A DNA stretch of 32,000 bases from Planctopirus limnophila DSM 3776. Lineage in GTDB: Bacteria > Planctomycetota > Planctomycetia > Planctomycetales > Planctomycetaceae. The first letter of the stretch is position 1, and the number at the start of each line of letters is the position of its first letter. The notes under the pieces were generated by a model. The model was not told the DNA's origin, ran no database searches, and was given only the letters and a program-made list of their open reading frames with translations. The translations under genes were made by a program, and so were the position numbers. Below are positions 3,820 through 32,000 of the stretch, piece by piece. The stretch covers positions 5,310,001 through 5,342,000 of the forward strand of contig NC_014148.1 of NCBI RefSeq assembly GCF_000092105.1, written 5' to 3'.

Positions 3820-4926
3820 ATGTTTGTCGATCAAATTGAAATTACCTGCAAAGGGGGCGATGGTGGCCCCGGATGTTCCAGCTTCCGGCGGGAAGCGCAC
3901 GTCCCTCGAGGCGGCCCCGATGGTGGTGATGGTGGTCGCGGCGGGCACGTCGTCATTATCGCTGATGAAAATGTTGACAGCCTCGTGCACCTGGTCGGGA
4001 TTCGTCATTGGTTTGCCAGCAATGGGAATCCCGGGACCAGTTCGCTCAAGACGGGTAAAGATGGCGAAGATCTCGTCATTCGTGTGCCGATGGGAACCAT
4101 TCTGCGTGATTCTCAGCGTGGCTTCGTCCTGCGTGATCTGACAGATCATGGCGATACGGTGATCGTCGCCAAAGGGGGCGAAGGGGGCTATGGCAACACG
4201 CGTTTCATGTCATCGACGAACCGCGCCCCGCGCGAATTCGGGCCGGGTGAACCTGGTGAAAAACGTGAGCTGCTGCTGGAGTTGAAAGTCGTCGCCGATG
4301 TGGGACTGATTGGAAAACCCAATGCCGGTAAATCGACGCTTCTTTCGCGGATGACACGGGCGACTCCGGAAATTGCCAACTACCCGTTCACGACGAAACA
4401 CCCGAATCTCGGGATTGTCCGCGTCGGTTACGAGCGGCAATTCGTGATGGCTGATATTCCCGGGCTGATTGAAGGAGCCCATGCGGGAGTGGGGCTAGGT
4501 CATGAATTTTTAAGGCACGTCGAGCGGACTCGCGTGCTCGTACATCTCGTTGAACCCAATCCGGATGACCAGACGGACCCGATCGAGAACTATCTGCAGA
4601 TCCGCGAAGAGTTGCGGCTTTACGATGACGATCTGGCCCAAAGACCTGAAATTGTCGTCATCAGCAAGTCGGAACTGCTGGATGCCGATGCTGCTAAAGA
4701 GCTGCTTGAAGAGCGGATTGGCAAACCCGTCCTGCAGATTTCAGCGATGACAGGTAAAGGACTTCCCGTACTGACCAAACAGATCATCGAGATTCTTGAT
4801 CGTCTGAAACAGGCTGAGGAAGACGCAGAGGCGGAAGCGGCTTACCTTGCCAGGAAAACATCGTCTGAAGCAGAGGCTCCCATCGCGCCGGCTCCTGTCG
4901 ATTCATCTGCAGAAAATGCTGAGTAA
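3820..4926 (+). CDS. obg: GTPase Obg/CgtA
   Basis: Canonical N-terminus MFVDQIEI..GGDGGPGCSSFRRE..PRGGPDGGDGGRGG. G-domain motifs GKPNAGKST, DIPGLIEGA and ISKSEL are present. Confidence 0.97.
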   Translation: MFVDQIEITCKGGDGGPGCSSFRREAHVPRGGPDGGDGGRGGHVVIIADENVDSLVHLVGIRHWFASNGNPGTSSLKTGKDGEDLVIRVPMGTILRDSQRGFVLRDLTDHGDTVIVAKGGEGGYGNTRFMSSTNRAPREFGPGEPGEKRELLLELKVVADVGLIGKPNAGKSTLLSRMTRATPEIANYPFTTKHPNLGIVRVGYERQFVMADIPGLIEGAHAGVGLGHEFLRHVERTRVLVHLVEPNPDDQTDPIENYLQIREELRLYDDDLAQRPEIVVISKSELLDADAAKELLEERIGKPVLQISAMTGKGLPVLTKQIIEILDRLKQAEEDAEAEAAYLARKTSSEAEAPIAPAPVDSSAENAE

Positions 4927-5061
4927 GGTGTCTCGAAAAGAGACGAGGCAAATTTTGAAGTCTCTTAGGCGGGCAGGCTGGTGGTCGTCCACTTGCAACC
5001 AGTGCTGACGAACGTTGAAATCTGAGTTGTTCCATCCCGAGGCTTCACCGAGGACTGATCT

Positions 5062-9232: not shown

Positions 9233-10853
9233 TCGTGCCGATGTTTTTTCAGCTGGCTTATGGCTTCGATTTGGTCGGCCCTCCCGGTATCTGTTGTTTT
9301 TGCTGGCAGGCTGTTCACTGATGATTTCGGGCTGCGGCGATCGGCCAGCCGTCAGTCAACCTGCGGGCGATCAAAATGCAGATCGTCAGGTGGCCAGCCC
9401 TGCGTCATCACAGGTAACTTCAAACAGCCAGGACTCAACGACTTCCAGAACGAGTCAAGCCGCCCAGCGACGAGTGGCAGAGATTGCCAGCAATATGCAG
9501 GATGAGCCGGAGATGGTCGTCCCGGATGCGGATCCTCAGGCGTTTGCTTCATCGCAGACGGGCGGAGAATCGAACCCCCGTGCGCAAATGGCTGCACGGC
9601 CTGCCGGGCCAGAACTGGCCACTCTTCCCGCTCCAGCGAAAACTCCAGCAGAACTCGAAGCGCTGGGGTTTCGGGTGATCACTTCGCCGCACATCGTCAT
9701 CGTGACCGATCTTCCACTAGCCGAAGTTGCCAAACTTCCCGAACTGGGGGAAGCGCTGCTCCAGCGACTGCAGAGCGATTTCCACATCAAGTGGCCCGAG
9801 AATCAGCAATTGACGGGCTATGTCATGTCTGACATGACGAGCTTCCGCGAGACAGGGCTGTTGCCAGAAGATTTGCCGGGCTTTCTGCATGGTCGACATC
9901 GGGGGAGTGAGTTCTGGATGAAAATGCAGGCCACGCCTTACTACTTGAGGCATCTATTCCTGCATGAGCTTACTCACGTGGTGACTTTGATTGGAGTGCG
10001 TGAAGATTTGCCTGTGGGATTTAAGGAAGGGATTGCCGAGTGGTACGCCACAAACTTTATAGACGAAGCGGGCAAGCCCTATTTTGGAGTGCTTCCCGGC
10101 AGGCCCGAAGATTTCGCTGGCTGGGGGCGGATTGGCCTGATTCAGGAAGATCTTGCTACAGGAAAAGGACGTTCGTTTGCTGATTTACTGACAATTGACG
10201 CCCACGAATTTTCTACGAACGACGACTATGCCTGGGCCTGGCTCTGGATTCAGTTCTGCAGCCAGCATCCCACCTATGGGCCGGATTTCGCCAAGCTACG
10301 AACATCTCGAACATTGGAGGAATTCCTCCAATCGGCCCGCCGAGCTGATCAGACATCGACGACATGGCTTTCCAGCGATTGGTTACGGCTCTCGACAGAT
10401 ATTTGTTTTGGTTATGATACCGCTTTGGCTGCGACGTTACATCGCCCCATGGAACCCCTGGCGGTTCAACCGGTCACACGCTCGATTGCAGCGAAGGCGG
10501 GCTGGCAATCGACGGGCCTGCTGGTTCCTCAAGGCACCACGATTCGTCTGCGTGCCAAAGGACAAGTCGAGCTGAATCGCACCACTCGCCCGTGGATTTC
10601 GCAACCACAAGGGATCTCGGTGGATTATGCGAATGGCCAGAAACTGGGACGGCTCATGGCCTGGTGGGGGATTCCTGACCTGCCACTCACAGCCCACGGT
10701 GCGGAATTCACAGAAGTCATTCCCGCAGGTCAAATCGCCCGACTGACCGCCCCTCGCGAGGCAGTGCTCTTTCTGCGCATCAACGACCATTTCTACGATC
10801 TCGCCAATAATTCGGGGGAGTATGAGGTGGTGATTGAGCAGGATGTGGAGTGA
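9225..10853 (+). CDS. Exported (lipoprotein-like signal) HExxH putative metallopeptidase, DUF1570-like, with C-terminal PA-IL/LecA-like beta-sandwich motif
   Basis: N-terminal LLFLLAGCSLMISGCGD, then LFLHELTHVV (HExxH). The C-terminus LRINDHFYDLANNSGEYEVVIE resembles the LecA ...YNDVPGTYGNNSGSFSVNI signature. The ATG overlaps the cupin stop (ATGTCTAG). Confidence 0.75.
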   Translation: MSSRADVFSAGLWLRFGRPSRYLLFLLAGCSLMISGCGDRPAVSQPAGDQNADRQVASPASSQVTSNSQDSTTSRTSQAAQRRVAEIASNMQDEPEMVVPDADPQAFASSQTGGESNPRAQMAARPAGPELATLPAPAKTPAELEALGFRVITSPHIVIVTDLPLAEVAKLPELGEALLQRLQSDFHIKWPENQQLTGYVMSDMTSFRETGLLPEDLPGFLHGRHRGSEFWMKMQATPYYLRHLFLHELTHVVTLIGVREDLPVGFKEGIAEWYATNFIDEAGKPYFGVLPGRPEDFAGWGRIGLIQEDLATGKGRSFADLLTIDAHEFSTNDDYAWAWLWIQFCSQHPTYGPDFAKLRTSRTLEEFLQSARRADQTSTTWLSSDWLRLSTDICFGYDTALAATLHRPMEPLAVQPVTRSIAAKAGWQSTGLLVPQGTTIRLRAKGQVELNRTTRPWISQPQGISVDYANGQKLGRLMAWWGIPDLPLTAHGAEFTEVIPAGQIARLTAPREAVLFLRINDHFYDLANNSGEYEVVIEQDVE

Positions 10854-11017
10854 TGGATTGGGTATTTGGTTTTGGGTATTTGGTATTTGAGGAAGAAGAG
10901 CCTTTCACCAGCAGTTTTGACGCAACTCCCAACTCCCAAACACCAAACACCAAACACCCAACACCCAATACCCAACACCCAATATCAAATCCCACACTCC
11001 CCAAAATTCCCATCTCC
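10841..11017. repeat. Strand-asymmetric low-complexity element: 60-nt C-free G/T-rich tract (10841-10900) followed by 95-nt G-free C/A-rich heptamer-repeat tract (10923-11017)
   Basis: Read directly: GGGTATTTGGTTTTGGGTATTTGGTATTTG ... CAACTCCCAACTCCCAAACACCAAACACCAAACACCCAACACCCAATACCCAACACCCAATATCAAATCCC. The arms are imperfect reverse complements. Confidence 0.85.
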
Positions 11018-11092
11018 GACTTCATCTGCTAGACTGGCTGTTTGGGTCGATCATGGCCCCCGACTTTTTGACACATGTTCTTTGAGAGTTTT

Positions 11093-26099: not shown

Positions 26100-27041
26100 C
26101 TATTCTGCAAACAACGCTTCCGCGAACTGATCGGGATCAAAAACTTCCAGATCATCAATTGCTTCACCGACTCCCACATATTTAACGGGAATACCCATCT
26201 GCTGTCGAATGGCGACAGCCACACCACCACGGGCTGTCCCGTCGAGTTTGCTGAGAATAAGGCCCGTCGTGCTGACAGCTTTCGAGAAGGCCTGGGCCTG
26301 ATTGAGTCCATTTTGACCTGTCGTCGCATCGATCACCAGGAGGGATTCATGTGGCGCATCAGGAATCTGTTTGGCAATCACCCGGCGAATCTTCTCCAGT
26401 TCCTGCATCAGGTTCTGCTGATTGTGCAGTCGTCCTGCTGTATCGATAATCAGGACATCGACACCCGCTTTGACGGCGGCTTCACAACCGGCAAAGGCCA
26501 CAGCCGCTGGATCTGTTCCGGCTGGTTTGGTGACAATGTCACAGCCCAGCCTCTGGCTCCAGAGTGTCAACTGCTCGACGGCGGCTGCTCGAAAAGTGTC
26601 TCCTGCGGCCAGTAACACGGTTTTCCCTTGCGAAGTTAGCAGCCGGGCCAGTTTGGCAATGGTGGTTGTCTTCCCGGTTCCATTCACACCGGCTACAAGA
26701 ATGACCGTTGGTCGGCTTTCTGAAAAATTCAGCGGCGAAAGTGGCTGTTCCGGATCGTAAGTTGTTGTAGAAGTCCCCTTGAGTATCGATTTGACGGTCG
26801 CTCGCACTGTGGCCCACAGTTCATCGACTTTCATCGTGCGGCCCAGATGCTCCTGCCTCAGATCACTCACAATCCGCGTAGTGGCAGCCACCCCCATATC
26901 GGTCTGAATCAGTCGGGCTTCGAACTGCTCAAGATGTTTCTCAGACAGAATCTCTCCCGATTTGAAGAGATCGCGAATATCTGTCCGCAGTAGCTGAGAT
27001 GTCTTTTTCAGCCCGGCTTTTAGCTTGTCGAAGAAACCCAT
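26100..27041 (-). CDS. ftsY: Signal recognition particle receptor FtsY
   Basis: MGFFDKLKAGLKKT N-terminus and NG-domain motifs GVNGTGKTTTIAKLA, AAGDTFRAAA, DTAGRL, SKLDGTARGG and VGVGE. AAGGAA lies upstream of the ATG at 27041. Confidence 0.95.
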   Translation of the reverse strand: MGFFDKLKAGLKKTSQLLRTDIRDLFKSGEILSEKHLEQFEARLIQTDMGVAATTRIVSDLRQEHLGRTMKVDELWATVRATVKSILKGTSTTTYDPEQPLSPLNFSESRPTVILVAGVNGTGKTTTIAKLARLLTSQGKTVLLAAGDTFRAAAVEQLTLWSQRLGCDIVTKPAGTDPAAVAFAGCEAAVKAGVDVLIIDTAGRLHNQQNLMQELEKIRRVIAKQIPDAPHESLLVIDATTGQNGLNQAQAFSKAVSTTGLILSKLDGTARGGVAVAIRQQMGIPVKYVGVGEAIDDLEVFDPDQFAEALFAE

Positions 27042-27515
27042 AACCCCAATTCCTTGCCAGAGCCGCTGCAGCGCACTCCTGGCGAACATCGCGACATTGG
27101 CGAAACATTCTGATTAGTTCTCAAGACCGGTTCAGCTCACTCGACCGGTAAGTTCTGATTTCATCGGCATCGTAACAGATCTGCTCCCGAGCGCCACGCG
27201 CTGGCCAGAACTTACCGACCGGTCGTTAACAGAAAACTGGCCTGACGAGTTTCAGACTTTGAAAAACATCAATGTGCCATGCTTGCAGCTCTGGGCAAGC
27301 ATGATTTGGCAACCAGGTGTTACTGCCTCGGAAACTTCTCAGAAATTCAGACTCTGAGAGATTACCACAGATGGTGGCCACCGAATGACAAACGACTCGC
27401 GCCTTGGGTTCGCAGCAGCAGCTGACAATCAGCGAGAACATTTCCTGTTGAATTCAGGCGTGAACTTACTGAAGGCCGGGCATGAGCCGGCCTTAATTTT
27501 CAGGAACAATTTGAA

Positions 27516-27588
27516 TGGAGCGGAGGGGAGTCGAACCCCCGACCTCAGCATTGCGAACGCTGCGCTCTCCCAACTGAGCTACCGCCCC
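27516..27588 (-). tRNA. tRNA-Ala (anticodon CGC), CCA not encoded
   Basis: The reverse complement is GGGGCGGTAGCTCAGTTGGGAGAGCGCAGCGTTCGCAATGCTGAGGTCGGGGGTTCGACTCCCCTCCGCTCCA. It folds as a cloverleaf with the G3:U70 Ala identity pair, anticodon loop TTCGCAA and a GTTCGACT T-loop. Confidence 0.95.
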
Positions 27589-27804
27589 GATCTCGCATGA
27601 ATGAATTTTATCTGGTTCGATCATCGGCGGAAAGGCTCTACCCGGTTTTGTTACCCAGCACCTTTTGTTGAGTGGAGTTTGACGCTGAAGGGGATGACCG
27701 GAGGTGAGAGATGTTCCAGGCAGGAGCCGGTGATGGTGATGTCGTCTTCATCGCCCACGAAGCAGGTCTCGGGGGCGGAGATGCCGCTGACAGCACACTG
27801 GCAG

Positions 27805-27845
27805 GGTTCTGGAGACGGTTCGGGACTGGGCTCGGGGCTGGGTTC
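27805..27845. repeat. About 3.4 copies of a degenerate 12-nt tandem repeat (GGYTCNGGRVMB); encodes (EPSP)n on the - strand and (GSGx)n on the + strand
   Basis: Read directly: ggttctggagac ggttcgggactg ggctcggggctg ggttc. Confidence 0.8.
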
Positions 27846-27948
27846 AATTGATCTTTGTGGAAACACAGATAGCCCGCGACACTCCCTGTTTCGGGCCTGG
27901 TCGGGGGCTATCTTGAGCTGTTACTTGAAGAACAGAAGCATGCCACTA

Positions 27949-28470
27949 TCAGAGATGCATGAGATAGACGATGTTTTTGTCGATATCAACGGCGATCTGA
28001 AGTCCAGTGTGATCCTCGTAGTATTTGCCGTTCTTGATTTGATCGACACTCTGCAGGAGCCTGCCGAATGCTTTTGTCGACTTTCTCGCAGTTATCGACA
28101 TGGTTGAGGGTGGAGGGCTGGTGGGTTTGGACGGCCAGTTCTTATACTTCATATTCATATCGGGATGAAATTCCATGAGATCTCCGAACTTTTCGATATC
28201 AGCTTTCTCCGCCTTGAAAATGAGGAATTTGTCCACATCCTGGAAGCCATAGGTGTGGAAAGAGATTTCCGTGGCTGATGTCGGCACTCCGACATTCCGG
28301 GTGATCTGGAGTATCTTCTGATAACAGGGGTGTTTCACTGCTTCCTGATAGGAGACCTTCCAAAGATCCGTTCTGTCCGTCTCGATGGAACACCCGCATG
28401 GCAACAGCACCAGACACATGATCAGAAAACAGCGGATATCCATGGATCTCAAGATGTTCCAAGTATTCAT
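27949..28470 (-). CDS. Exported, probably lipid-anchored hypothetical protein
   Basis: N-terminus MNTWNILRSMDIRCFLIMCLVLLPCGCS (signal with Cys). AAGGAA lies 6 nt upstream of the ATG at 28470. No family was recognised. Confidence 0.6.
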   Translation of the reverse strand: MNTWNILRSMDIRCFLIMCLVLLPCGCSIETDRTDLWKVSYQEAVKHPCYQKILQITRNVGVPTSATEISFHTYGFQDVDKFLIFKAEKADIEKFGDLMEFHPDMNMKYKNWPSKPTSPPPSTMSITARKSTKAFGRLLQSVDQIKNGKYYEDHTGLQIAVDIDKNIVYLMHL

Positions 28471-28574: not shown

Positions 28575-29621
28575 TTAATGCTTCAGCTCATTTAGGTAAT
28601 TTTCCAGTAACAACTGCTCCCGCTTCAATTCCGCCTTCTCGACGGGCAACCTCCACTGGAATTCGCACGTGGAGGCGATCCTCTTGTCTTGGCGGCCCCC
28701 GTCGATTCCGTATTCGCCCGCAAGGATCATTCGATAGGCTATAGGTCGGCTGCAATCGAAGATCCTGCCGAGGGGCAACGTCAGACGATGCGTGGTCTTG
28801 GCGGGGATGAGGATCGTCGTTAAGCCCGCTTCGTCCTTTAGGCTTTTCCCGAAGCGGGTTTTCACCACCGCGTGGAGTTCCTTCTCGGGGGTATAGGCAA
28901 GTGATCCGTTCGGGAACGCCGTCACGACCTGGAGTGAGGTGATCTTGAACTGTATCGGTTGGGCCGACTTGTTTTCGATGGAGATCCGCGTGGCGAAGTC
29001 TGGTGGGGTCTCCGTCTCGCCGGTGGAAGTAGCAATATTCCCGGTGATCTCCAGATCGAGATTGCCTGTCTTCCAGGAGACTGCCGATTCGGAGGGCTGC
29101 GTCTCCTCAGCCGGACGCGTTTCTACGATCGTGAAAGGGATATTGACAATCCTGGTGCCGCAATCGATGTCGACCGAGTACTTTCCGCTGGCGGTCAAAT
29201 CATGGCGCTCGTTCAACAGGGCGGTTCTTGTGAAGGCCTTGAGGTGCGGGTCGAAGGTGTCGGCGAACTCGAAATCGCGGATTCCTAACTTGGGATTCCA
29301 CACGTTTGATATGAGAAAATCGTGGAGCGCAACATGAGGAATCGACGTGCCATTCTCCCCCTTTACGGTGAATCGGAAGAGCTGATGTTGCCATTGGCCT
29401 TGAATGGCTTTGGCTTGAGGTGTGCGGCGATAATGAATTGTGACCTTAACCGGTTCGCCAGCGAGATACTCCCGGCCTCTTTTCGGAGAAGCGATGTGGA
29501 TCTCGTATCCATTCTCCGTGGCGATCCATTCTGGGGCAGGCGCGGCTACTTGATTGGATTGGGCTTGAGCACGAATGGAACCGATCAAGGCAAGTAATAT
29601 CATCGCGACGAACATCCGCAT
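28575..29621 (-). CDS. Secreted hypothetical protein (about 348 aa, beta-rich)
   Basis: Signal peptide MRMFVAMILLALIGSIRAQA-QS. GAAGGTG lies 6 nt upstream of the ATG at 29621 (the ORF opens at GTG 29630). No family was recognised. Confidence 0.7.
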   Translation of the reverse strand: MRMFVAMILLALIGSIRAQAQSNQVAAPAPEWIATENGYEIHIASPKRGREYLAGEPVKVTIHYRRTPQAKAIQGQWQHQLFRFTVKGENGTSIPHVALHDFLISNVWNPKLGIRDFEFADTFDPHLKAFTRTALLNERHDLTASGKYSVDIDCGTRIVNIPFTIVETRPAEETQPSESAVSWKTGNLDLEITGNIATSTGETETPPDFATRISIENKSAQPIQFKITSLQVVTAFPNGSLAYTPEKELHAVVKTRFGKSLKDEAGLTTILIPAKTTHRLTLPLGRIFDCSRPIAYRMILAGEYGIDGGRQDKRIASTCEFQWRLPVEKAELKREQLLLENYLNELKH

Positions 29622-29787
29622 GGCTGTCACCTTCGTGGGTTCAATCTCCGATCATCATTCCTGAAATTCTTCAATGCAGAAACTTACTTGGCAAACATTT
29701 TGAAAAGAAAACCGCCTTTACTCGTCTAACGGCTCATATTTCGTTTCACTGGGCAATAGGGATGTGGGTGACCGCGTGACCACCAAA

Positions 29788-30396
29788 TCAACCTTGAATT
29801 GATGGAGTCTTTCCAACTCCTTCCAGGCATTTTTTTCGGGCGAGTTGAGCGCTTTCCGCCTTATCACCCTCTGTCTTCTGGAGAATCAGGATCTGCTCCC
29901 TCACCTCTGGAAACCGCTCTCGAAGCATTCCCTCAAGAAGCGTTCGATGTCTATGATATGCCGATGATTCAAAGCTGACCCATTCGACGGCGGGCCATGT
30001 CATCACTTCCAGAAGATCCGCATATGGGATGTAGCTACAGGAGTCTGAAAGCATATAGACGCGCAGCACTCTGTCCTTGTTGGGAAAATTCTGGATCAGT
30101 TGGCTGGGCTCAAGGCAACCCGGCTTCGAACTATCTCCTGTTCGATCGTAATAGAGAGTTAGTCGTTCGATGCGAGACCCTGACAGTTGTTGAATGGGGC
30201 TCCGCCATGCCTTGCTGTCGATCAATGGCCAGTCCACATCACCATTGATCGAGCTGAACGACCATTGCTTGAGATACTCTCTGGTCATCCGGTAGCGGCC
30301 GTAGGAATCGATGACGGAATAGCTGAACGACAACAGCAGGAGACAGGCAAGCGATGCCAGAGTAATCCATATCCATCGTTTCCGATTTCGTGACAT
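29788..30396 (-). CDS. N-terminally membrane-anchored hypothetical protein, paralogue family member P1
   Basis: The TM anchor is WIWITLASLACLLLLSFSYSVI. The shared motif is IQNFPNKDRVLRVYMLSDSCSYIPYADLLEVMTWP. Confidence 0.65.
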   Translation of the reverse strand: MSRNRKRWIWITLASLACLLLLSFSYSVIDSYGRYRMTREYLKQWSFSSINGDVDWPLIDSKAWRSPIQQLSGSRIERLTLYYDRTGDSSKPGCLEPSQLIQNFPNKDRVLRVYMLSDSCSYIPYADLLEVMTWPAVEWVSFESSAYHRHRTLLEGMLRERFPEVREQILILQKTEGDKAESAQLARKKCLEGVGKTPSIQG

Positions 30397-30406
30397 CGCA
30401 CACCTG
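30250..30406. repeat. Copy A of a 157-bp direct duplication (6 mismatches vs 31224..31380)
   Basis: Aligned base by base at a constant offset of 974 nt. It covers the 5' UTR end and the first 49 codons of P1. Confidence 0.9.
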
Positions 30407-30588
30407 CCTTTTTGAAAGTAAAGAATCCATCAAGGTAGGACTTCTTCCGTTTCCACAATATCAAGAATTCGTCCAGACCACTCGGGCACATCGGGCGTCA
30501 TGGCCAGCGCGGGGGAGACCGATCCATTCGGTTGGGAGGGGCAGTCGGCCCGGGGACGCGGCAATACTCCGCGTTCAATAAACAAGGC

Positions 30589-31200
30589 TCACATTGACAA
30601 AGGATCTTTTCGCTTCTTCGCGATAGTTCCAAGTTCTTGCCAAAGCAGCTCGACATACTTTTTAAGATTACGGCCATGCCTTTCGTTTATCTGTGCCTGT
30701 TCAATCGAAAACAAAATAGAAATCACGCGTTCAAACTCCTCGCCAGGAACATTTTGCAAACATCCGTCGCTTTCGATCGTGACCTTGTTGTGCGGCCATT
30801 TGGTCAGATGGAAAAAGACGGCGGGGATCTCGGACTGTTCGACAGATCCAGACAACACAGTGTGAGTCACGCCATTTTTCAGAGGGAAGCTGTCGATGAT
30901 TGGCAGAACCCGTACCACCCGTTCAATCCCCGTGTAGGGCAACTCCGGTTCGACGAAGAAATCCACTTCGGTTGGATTGGTGTCGAACCATGCCACGAAT
31001 TGTAAGGGAAGTTGCTGCCGCAGTGCGGCTGGCAGATAGCTCCCCTGTTTAGTGGTGACATGTAAACCATTTTGGCGAGACGTGTGAATGTATCTCCATA
31101 GGACAGCCCGTTCATACGTTTGCTTGACGATCAAGACAAGTGCCACCAGAAACAGTCCTGTCACCACGTACCGCATGATATGATCACGGGAAGTCGTCAT
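30589..31200 (-). CDS. N-terminally membrane-anchored hypothetical protein, divergent paralogue P2
   Basis: The TM anchor is YVVTGLFLVALVLIV. The motif is IDSFPLKNGVTHTVLSGSVEQSEIPAVFFHLTKWP. GAGGA lies 6 nt upstream of the ATG at 31200. Confidence 0.65.
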   Translation of the reverse strand: MTTSRDHIMRYVVTGLFLVALVLIVKQTYERAVLWRYIHTSRQNGLHVTTKQGSYLPAALRQQLPLQFVAWFDTNPTEVDFFVEPELPYTGIERVVRVLPIIDSFPLKNGVTHTVLSGSVEQSEIPAVFFHLTKWPHNKVTIESDGCLQNVPGEEFERVISILFSIEQAQINERHGRNLKKYVELLWQELGTIAKKRKDPLSM

Positions 31201-31370
31201 GGCGAGTCCTCAGTTTTAGTTCGCGAGCTGAACGACCATTGCTTGAGATACTCTCTGGTCATTCGGTAGCGGCCGTAGGAATCAATGACGGAATAGCAGA
31301 ACGACAACAGCAGGAGACAGGCAAGCGATGCCAGAGTGATCCATATCCATCGTTTCCGATTCCCTGACAT
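31197..31370 (-). pseudogene. Truncated 5' copy of a P1-like gene (57 codons: TM anchor only), stop overlapping the P2 start (ATGA)
   Basis: MSGNRKRWIWITLASLACLLLLSFCYSVIDSYGRYRMTREYLKQWSFSS is near-identical to P1 residues 1-49. Homology then breaks abruptly into RTKTEDSP-stop. Confidence 0.55.
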
Positions 31371-31380
31371 CGCACACCTG
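31224..31380. repeat. Copy B of the 157-bp direct duplication
   Basis: See copy A. Weaker similarity continues about 30 nt further upstream (30407-30436 vs 31381-31410). Confidence 0.9.
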
Positions 31381-31502
31381 TGTTTTCTTGAATAAAGCAA
31401 TGGCTCAAGGCAAAAGTCTTTTGATCTGCACAGTATTTAGAATCCATTAAGAAGCTTGGATAATCTTGTAAATCGACAAGCTGCCTGCGATTGTCCTCTC
31501 GG

Positions 31503-32000
31503 TTAGAACTCAGTTCTCGCTGGGGGAGAGTTTAATTCGATGTATCTTCTCACCTCTCGATGTGCTTCGGCTAAGGAGTCGTTAGAGGCTTTTGAATTCA
31601 TGACATTCAGCAGGCGCTCCCTGAGGCCGGGGAAATGTTCGCGGGAAAGGTTCTCTCCTGGGAAAAAAAGTGCATTGCACCGGAATGATTCGAGATTGGG
31701 CCAACCCAATACCTCCACGATGTCGGCGTAGGGCAGATTGCCGGTCGGAAACGCGATCTCCACATGCGTCACAAGCGACTTTTCCGGGAAGTTGTGAATC
31801 GAATGACTGGGCTGTTGATACCCCGGAAATGCATAGCTGCTTGTCAAACTTGATTGCGATGGCGAAATATCTGCATACGAGATTAATAGTTCGTCACACA
31901 TACGAGTATCACCCAAGATCGCCAGCGTGGTATCCTGGAACTGGCCGATCCGTGTCCTTTTCTGGGGTAACAACTTGCGCGCATCGTAAATTAAACAGAT
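31503..32000 (-). CDS. Paralogue family member P3, 5'-partial (reading frame open to the window edge)
   Basis: IHNFPEKSLVTHVEIAFPTGNLPYADIVEVLGWP...EHFPGLRERLL aligns with P1 IQNFPNKDRVLRVYML..IPYADLLEVMTWP...ERFPEVREQIL. No in-frame stop occurs between 31973 and 32000. Confidence 0.6.
   Translation of the reverse strand: MCLIYDARKLLPQKRTRIGQFQDTTLAILGDTRMCDELLISYADISPSQSSLTSSYAFPGYQQPSHSIHNFPEKSLVTHVEIAFPTGNLPYADIVEVLGWPNLESFRCNALFFPGENLSREHFPGLRERLLNVMNSKASNDSLAEAHREVRRYIELNSPPARTEF

Follow-up and report, generated by a model that had tools for sequence, protein, structure and literature searches.

The window analysed here was a stretch of 32,000 nucleotides from Planctopirus limnophila DSM 3776 (NC_014148.1, positions 5,310,001 to 5,342,000). 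Its minus strand was read from base 32000 downwards, and positions are given in the numbering of the whole stretch. The first genes met in this direction, all on the minus strand, belong to an array of small membrane-anchored proteins, here termed P. P3 (31503-32000 and beyond; open reading frame (ORF) 31503-31973/32000) is represented by the C-terminal 165 codons of a family member of approximately 220 to 226 residues. Its frame is open up to base 32000, and the anchor end lies beyond the window. After a spacer of 129 nt comes a 57-residue ORF (31197-31370), a truncated copy of P1 comprising the basic N-terminus, the transmembrane (TM) segment and the juxtamembrane helix, followed by 8 foreign residues. 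P2 (30589-31200) is an intact 203-residue member of the P2/P4 clade. It is separated by 192 nt from P1 (29718-30396), a member of approximately 225 residues that contains a +1 frameshift and as sequenced stops at 29788 (202 residues). Upstream of P1, a remnant of a second kind of gene was found at 30433-30588: the 3' end (approximately 36 codons) of a gene for a variable C-terminal domain (CT) of type B.

An earlier note on this sequence had proposed that P1, P2 and P3 are tandem paralogues with a common core. This was upheld by BLASTP, by an anchor-free hidden Markov model (HMM) and by hhalign, which agreed that the three are real paralogues. All peptide strings quoted in support of the proposal were located, in minus-strand ORFs 29788-30396, 30589-31200 and 31503-31973/32000. 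Pairwise BLASTP gave E values of 1e-13 for P1-P3, 2e-3 for P2-P3 and only 0.15 for P1-P2, so that profiles were needed to establish the P1-P2 relation. An unbiased HMM was built from P2/P4/P5-type proteins only, after the anchor (residues 1-45) had been trimmed off, and applied to a test set of 1416 sequences. P1-type proteins were recovered at 1e-8 to 1e-9 and P3-type proteins at approximately 1e-3, with the best unrelated ORF at 0.019. Alignment of clade against clade with hhalign gave a probability of 96% and an E value of 3.5e-9. The resemblance thus goes beyond chance, and no Pfam, NCBIfam or PADLOC family was matched. The alignment of four subtypes was collinear from the anchor through the C-terminal helices, with invariant columns at I101, P105, K107, W134, P135 and F162. 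A set of 19 related loci (L numbers below) was fetched for context. Full-length P3 orthologues (L001:1543-2223, 226 residues; P0015, 220 residues) have an N-terminal basic stretch and a hydrophobic anchor.

The extent of the family was assessed with a word-indexed search of 5.8 billion proteins and a HMMER profile search run exhaustively over 1.84 billion representatives. The former returned 4 clusters with P1 as query and 13 with the family alignment. The latter returned 12 matches, of which 11 were credible (108-243 residues, each with one N-terminal hydrophobic segment). P0020, a 1084-residue repeat protein with a family-profile E value of 1.5e-5, was judged spurious, its sequence containing low-complexity DNFPAFP repeats. 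Among the billions of proteins searched, the family amounted in total to approximately 20 clusters, each of them Planctopirus-like, and to at least seven subtypes in other loci. The named sources were Planctopirus ephydatiae, P. hydrillae and a 'Planctomyces sp.' metagenome-assembled genome; two members (P0014 and P0022) were not placed on any contig. Over the aligned parts, the window DNA was 91-93% identical to the P. hydrillae and P. ephydatiae loci. No P protein matched a Pfam, NCBIfam or PADLOC family at E values up to 0.1-1, including the known immunity families (Imm*, SUKH, SuFu, Cmi).

The soluble domain of P2 (residues 57-203) was modelled with AlphaFold2 from a 14-sequence alignment, with a predicted local distance difference test score (pLDDT) of 85.2 and a predicted TM-score of 0.76. 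The model has the order strand-helix-strand-helix-strand, followed by two long helices. The same order was obtained in a full-length P1 model (pLDDT 70), behind a long TM/juxtamembrane helix and a disordered linker. Foldseek searches with the P1 and P2-domain models against 350,542 PDB chains and BFVD returned nothing below E=0.08. The tandem paralogues belong to a very narrow new family with an unmatched fold. Summed over ten members, the charge flanking the TM segment was +21 on the N-terminal and +8 on the C-terminal side, a bias which points to a probable N-in/C-out orientation with the P domain in the periplasm.

The frameshift in P1 results from an A7 run at 29830-29836, which is A6 in five orthologous loci. 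The P1 homologues P0001-P0003 read on as ...LARKNAWKELERL..., corresponding to window ORF 29718-29867, and the homologue continuation past the apparent P1 stop, ...LARKNAWKELERLHQFKV..., is encoded by this same overlapping ORF. Intact P1 thus has approximately 225 residues and ends at 29718. The A7 run could be a real frameshift or a homopolymer error of sequencing or assembly, with a pseudogene or a slippage-prone switch among the options. The truncated copy forms part of a 174-nt direct repeat, 93% identical between 31224-31397 and 30250-30423, which covers 27 nt of leader and P1 codons 1-49. The stop codon of the truncated ORF and the start codon of P2 overlap (ATGA). The junction links P1 codon 49 to the final few bases, stop included, of a CT-A-type gene and to the spacer before P2. 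Because the junction fuses P1 codon 49 directly to the last CT-A bases, the arrangement implies a putative deletion that removed the whole CT-A gene and retained P2.

In the related loci, the P genes sit behind the 3' end, or a stub, of a gene for a large protein. From N- to C-terminus this protein comprises a GT2 glycosyltransferase part (GT2 plus Glyco_transf_7C), a helical linker, a PEPSPEPS linker, a cysteine-containing Ig/PKD-like stretch (CQCAVSGISAPETCFVGDEDDITITG...VYKVQIFANGEDVTGG...EFTNEW) and the CT of approximately 300 residues, which closes with the pattern ...F.LMYQP.GG.IWV.L...W.W...LP.W..R.QD. Six paralogous CT variants were compared. Identity was 0.79-0.92 over the first approximately 90 shared residues and fell to 0.15-0.35 over the next approximately 300. 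A sharp C-terminal divergence after a conserved part, one of the features by which polymorphic toxins are recognised, is present among the six. The best PDB profile match of the CT was to a ribosome-inactivating protein (2g5x, E 0.021); the Q...R residues aligned, the catalytic Glu was not conserved, and the match was attributed to chance. In P. ephydatiae, a leucine-rich repeat (LRR) protein gene (L007:2977-4047, minus strand) replaces the 5' half of the GT2 domain. Because it sits in the place of that half, the 677-residue CT-A protein of this locus (L007:4125-6158) starts inside a truncated GT2 domain.

The GT2-PKD scaffold was also found in other Planctomycetaceae (P0024-P0028, 734-944 residues; L011:6135-8873, L012:5297-8131), where its C-termini are unrelated. 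In P0027 and P0028 the C-terminus weakly matched DUF2380 (E 0.002 and 0.018; 17.9 and 14.9 bits, below the cut-off of 26.3). DUF2380 is the SitA6 toxin family, which includes the pMF1.20 nuclease (PMC12077181, PMC6091211). This scaffold may serve more generally to carry polymorphic ends. A Cys...His...Asp pattern recalling transglutaminase or papain-like domains was seen, by eye only, in the C-termini of P0025 and P0026. In the distant locus L014, a metagenome contig, a protein without GT2 likewise carries the CT domain; no P-like start was present in the 145 nt that follow this CT gene.

Every intact CT gene with visible downstream sequence was followed by a P gene, and the spacing ranged from a 4-nt overlap to a 33-nt gap. 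A distinct small gene downstream, as in polymorphic toxin systems, was thus found in seven CT-to-P pairings from isolates and metagenomes. CT-A was followed by P2 (L005, L007, L008) and CT-B by P1 (L002, L004, L009), with CT-B remnants in the same place in the window and in L005-L008. A CT-B-like tail preceded P0018 (L015). CT-C was paired with P4 (L001, L005, L007, L008, L009, L013), CT-D with P6 through an ATGA overlap (L009), and CT-E with a P0019-type gene (L016, L017, L018). In L019, a CT-G gene lies 24 nt upstream of a P3 orthologue, which is followed by P1. The pairing extended to the level of clades. CT variants B, D and G, which have a two-residue insertion before IWV, were paired with the P1/P6/P3 clade, and variants A, C and E, which lack it, with the P2/P4/P0019 clade (concordance 6/6, chance 1/20).

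Orphan modules and remnants were found in these loci, next to a tRNA-Ala(CGC) gene (27516-27588, minus strand; ARAGORN and Rfam) that forms the fixed border of the variable array and occupies the same position in L001, L007 and L009. Gene order beside this tRNA varied among five genomes. In P. hydrillae (L009) the order was CT-D, P6, a CT-B module, P1, a CT-C stub, P4 and tRNA-Ala, and the CT-B module (L009:2031-3164) starts within the conserved stretch, without the GT2/linker part. In P. ephydatiae (L007) it was the 677-residue CT-A gene, P2, a CT-B stub, P1, a 351-residue protein gene (S351), P5, a CT-C stub, P4, a copy of the conserved region and tRNA-Ala. The two copies of conserved-region DNA in this locus (4596-4966 and 10718-11088; 371 nt, 88% identical) are direct repeats that flank the whole array. 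The counterpart of the tRNA-proximal copy was seen in the window at 27706-27824.

In the window itself, the large partner gene has left a conserved-region remnant (27654-27920, minus strand; PEPSPEPS linker and CQCAVSGISAPETCFVGDEDDITITG) that is cut off beside the tRNA and matched the 677-residue protein of L007 with a phmmer value of 4.6e-26. The CT-B stub at 30433-30588 matched the C-terminus (...TPDVPEWSGRILDIVETEE..P) of the intact CT-B genes L002:1-1032 and L009:2031-3164. The window array of P3, truncated P1, P2 and P1 has no intact CT gene in view. Orphan modules (L009:2031-3164 and the two window remnants) and a poly-immunity-like array (that of the window) were thus both found. Planctomycetes are documented to have polymorphic toxin systems that include poly-immunity loci and recombining cassettes (PMC3482391), and by analogy the pattern of displacement and orphans seen here is that described for polymorphic toxin loci.

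Selection and divergence were estimated between orthologues. The ratio of nonsynonymous to synonymous divergence (omega) was 0.13-0.5 for the P genes versus 0.02-0.04 for ftsY; at these values the P genes are therefore real, constrained coding genes. Synonymous divergence (dS) was 0.2-0.7 for P1 and P4, and 0.06-0.13 for the flanking ftsY. P2 hardly differed between genomes (dS 0.014-0.036 for window 30589-31200 against L005:601-1212 and L007:6174-6785), which suggests a probable recent horizontal spread of the P2 cassette. The discordant dS values indicate old alleles together with recent cassette transfer. A mosaic pattern was visible in the P orthologue alignments. Two stretches, P1 codons 111-160 and P4 codons 81-150, were hypervariable; there the proportions of nonsynonymous (pN) and synonymous (pS) differences were both raised, and pN/pS peaked at 0.56-0.76, which suggests that diverged alleles have recombined.

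In the explanation proposed here, P1, P2, P3 and the truncated P1 copy belong to a Planctopirus-restricted family of single-pass membrane proteins, built from a basic N-terminus, one TM helix, an alpha/beta domain of approximately 150 residues that is probably periplasmic, and two long helices. Each P subtype would be the cognate partner of one CT variant on the GT2-linker-Ig/PKD-like protein. The CT would be exported and toxic, and the P protein would bind it, most likely as a neutralising, immunity-like partner. Recombination within the conserved stretch that precedes the CT would swap CT plus P modules, and displaced modules would accumulate as orphans beside tRNA-Ala. The window would then represent such an orphan array, in which a deletion fused a P1 copy to a CT-A end and kept P2, and in which only a CT-B stub precedes P1.

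The reading preferred here, tentatively and at a little under an even chance, is that of a polymorphic-toxin-like cassette system in which the P proteins act as cognate, immunity-like partners, and of the window as an orphan array. The P and CT families are both undescribed, and the system resembles a known kind of cassette. A wider proposal is that the loci encode an undescribed polymorphic effector/partner system, with swappable beta-rich CTs of approximately 300 residues on a GT-Ig scaffold, membrane-anchored partners of a new alpha/beta fold and modules hoarded beside tRNA-Ala. Such a system could be a new toxin/immunity class of Planctomycetes, exported by an undescribed route, or a kin-recognition code. 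This proposal is advanced as possible, well short of an even chance.

Several observations weigh against an immunity function. Searches of the CT with Pfam, NCBIfam and a PDB sequence profile revealed neither a toxin domain nor a catalytic motif. The carrier has no signal peptide, TM or other hydrophobic segment, and thus no trafficking or secretion module of the kind that polymorphic toxins carry; to our knowledge, an N-terminal GT2 domain has not been described as a toxin-trafficking module, and that of the P. ephydatiae carrier is truncated. The CT variants are homologous to each other and are not unrelated folds. A Mantel test of CT-tail against P-domain percent identities gave r=-0.28, which was not significant, and P5 and P0017 had no CT gene upstream. 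The topology of P2-type members was ambiguous. Sliding pN/pS analysis within P genes gave no core window above 1, and positive selection was without support. Finally, the CT-C stub upstream of P4 is an open frame of 111 codons in four loci (L001:3078-3410, L005:2128-2460, L009:3924-4256, L013:15-347; also present at L007:9779-9991). Its omega of 0.11-0.26 across five loci is a sign of purifying selection and a poor fit with a dead remnant. The stub may instead be a functional small protein (a 74-residue ORF from MYQPTGG).

The earlier note had guessed at an array of immunity or receptor-decoy genes. The array architecture is supported in the related loci by the pairing of P subtypes with CTs, the orphans and the CT remnants, whereas neither a toxin domain nor an export signal nor an activity was identified for the CT. 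Of the polymorphic-toxin genes that the note advised looking for beyond base 32000, none was present in the window; in L019 a CT gene does lie immediately upstream of the P3 orthologue. The note's description of the paralogues as diversifying holds for the diverged mosaic alleles and not for positive selection; with pN/pS below 1, 'diversifying' here therefore denotes mosaic recombination of old alleles.

Contact-dependent growth inhibition (CDI; cdiA-CT/cdiI), Rhs and polymorphic toxin systems (Zhang et al. 2012, PMC3482391) share with these loci a conserved body with an abruptly variable C-terminus and a small cognate gene downstream. Also in common are start-less orphan modules that keep a piece of the conserved region, a strain-specific content and a recombinational history. 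They differ in that the carrier here is GT2 plus Ig/PKD-like and not TPS/FHA, Rhs/YD, PAAR or LXG, and lacks recognisable export signals and demarcation motifs (for example VENN). In addition, the CT variants here are mutually homologous (15-30% identity) and match no toxin family, and their partners fall in no known Imm family. The SitA/SitI systems of Myxococcus (SitA6 being Pfam DUF2380; PMC12077181) likewise have many paralogous toxin/immunity loci per genome and act in kin discrimination, and the weak DUF2380-like C-termini of the GT2-PKD relatives P0027 and P0028 are a further likeness. These matches are, however, sub-threshold and come from distant relatives; the Planctopirus CTs themselves gave none. 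The SitA toxins, moreover, are lipoproteins moved by outer-membrane exchange, and nothing comparable was seen here.

The colicin M immunity protein Cmi and the Tsi/Tai/Tli proteins of type VI secretion systems (T6SS) are small proteins held at the inner membrane, with a periplasmic functional domain, that guard against envelope-targeting toxins. The P proteins would resemble them in size, in their inner-membrane location and in a periplasmic domain, as far as the charge bias indicates; in sequence and fold there is no similarity. In Proteus mirabilis, the IdsD/IdsE pair couples an exported protein with a membrane partner; both are polymorphic, and their variable regions determine specificity, not necessarily with killing. 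The CT and P proteins likewise combine a polymorphic protein with a polymorphic membrane partner. Unlike here, Ids needs a T6SS and IdsE is multi-pass; no homology and no T6SS context were found.

In an alternative reading, CT and P would form a non-lethal recognition or docking pair. The CT would be a surface or periplasmic ligand and P its membrane receptor or anchor, in kin or self recognition, adhesion, or holdfast or aggregate specificity. The evidence of pairing, polymorphism and mosaic alleles applies to such a pair equally. The CT variants share one fold-like pattern and accompany Ig/PKD-like modules typical of adhesion, with no toxin domain, and P is membrane-anchored in the manner of an IdsE-type partner. 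Orphan partners without a ligand, and the precise loss of a large gene with P2 kept, are nevertheless more typical of immunity hoarding, and no adhesion or recognition domain was found in P. A recognition pair is regarded as unlikely.

It is likewise improbable that the P proteins are an independent, lineage-specific envelope family that stands beside the CT only through shared recombining cassettes at a tRNA hotspot. The subtypes without an upstream CT (P5, P0017), the missing correlation between CT-tail and P-domain distances and the absence of a functional clue for P from any library are consistent with independence. Against it, seven subtypes each abut a different CT variant at the close spacing given above, in isolates and metagenomes alike, and the last CT codons stay attached to P even where the CT gene has been destroyed.

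A small LRR-like or other known alpha/beta domain, suggested by [FW]-P motifs (FP104, WP134, FP162) spaced at approximately 28-30 residues as in a degenerate repeat, by the beta-alpha-beta-alpha-beta order of both models and by the LRR protein gene nearby in P. ephydatiae, is very unlikely and the repeat reading was rejected, since no LRR was matched in Pfam or among the top Foldseek matches (PDB, BFVD; pLDDT-85 model) and HHalign self-alignment of the profile revealed no internal repeat (E 0.55). That the P genes are decaying, non-functional ORFs in a junk-rich variable islet, as the frameshifted P1, the truncated P1 copy and the abundant remnants might suggest, is hardly credible given omega of 0.13-0.5, frames left intact in three named taxa as well as several metagenomes, core residues that do not vary and a confident fold prediction.

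If the preferred reading of cognate CT and immunity-like P partners is true, the loci would provide a new immunity-like fold family and a new variable effector domain on an unexpected carrier, a GT-Ig scaffold that in relatives seems to bear other toxin-like ends. Interbacterial conflict and recognition systems have hardly been studied in Planctomycetes, and the routes by which these bacteria export large secreted proteins are unclear. Planctopirus limnophila is transformable, and the loci would offer a compact, genetically tractable set of cognate pairs for work on the evolution of specificity. Should the preferred reading be wrong, the locus would still clearly exemplify how cassettes are shuffled and old alleles maintained at a tRNA-flanked hotspot.

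The remaining features of the window lie between P1 and the tRNA and past it. An Rfam scan returned the tRNA only, and PADLOC defence models gave no match. Scans for sigma-70 promoters and terminators returned sites no commoner than in shuffled sequence. The last feature in minus-strand order, past tRNA-Ala, was ftsY (26100-27089). A 173-residue lipoprotein-like ORF (Lp173; 27949-28470, minus strand) occupies the slot that is held in P. ephydatiae by P5, the CT-C remnant and P4. The gene for S351 (28575-29630, minus strand) encodes a 351-residue protein with a signal peptide and no above-threshold Pfam family. It follows P1 in most loci, and the next gene after it was P3, P5 or the lipoprotein-like ORF. 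S351 had weak similarity (E 9e-4) to the product of the gene upstream of the CT-bearing protein in the distant locus L014, and may be an accessory or third component of the system. The sequence of this S351-like gene (L014:144-1181) contains an internal two-fold repeat.

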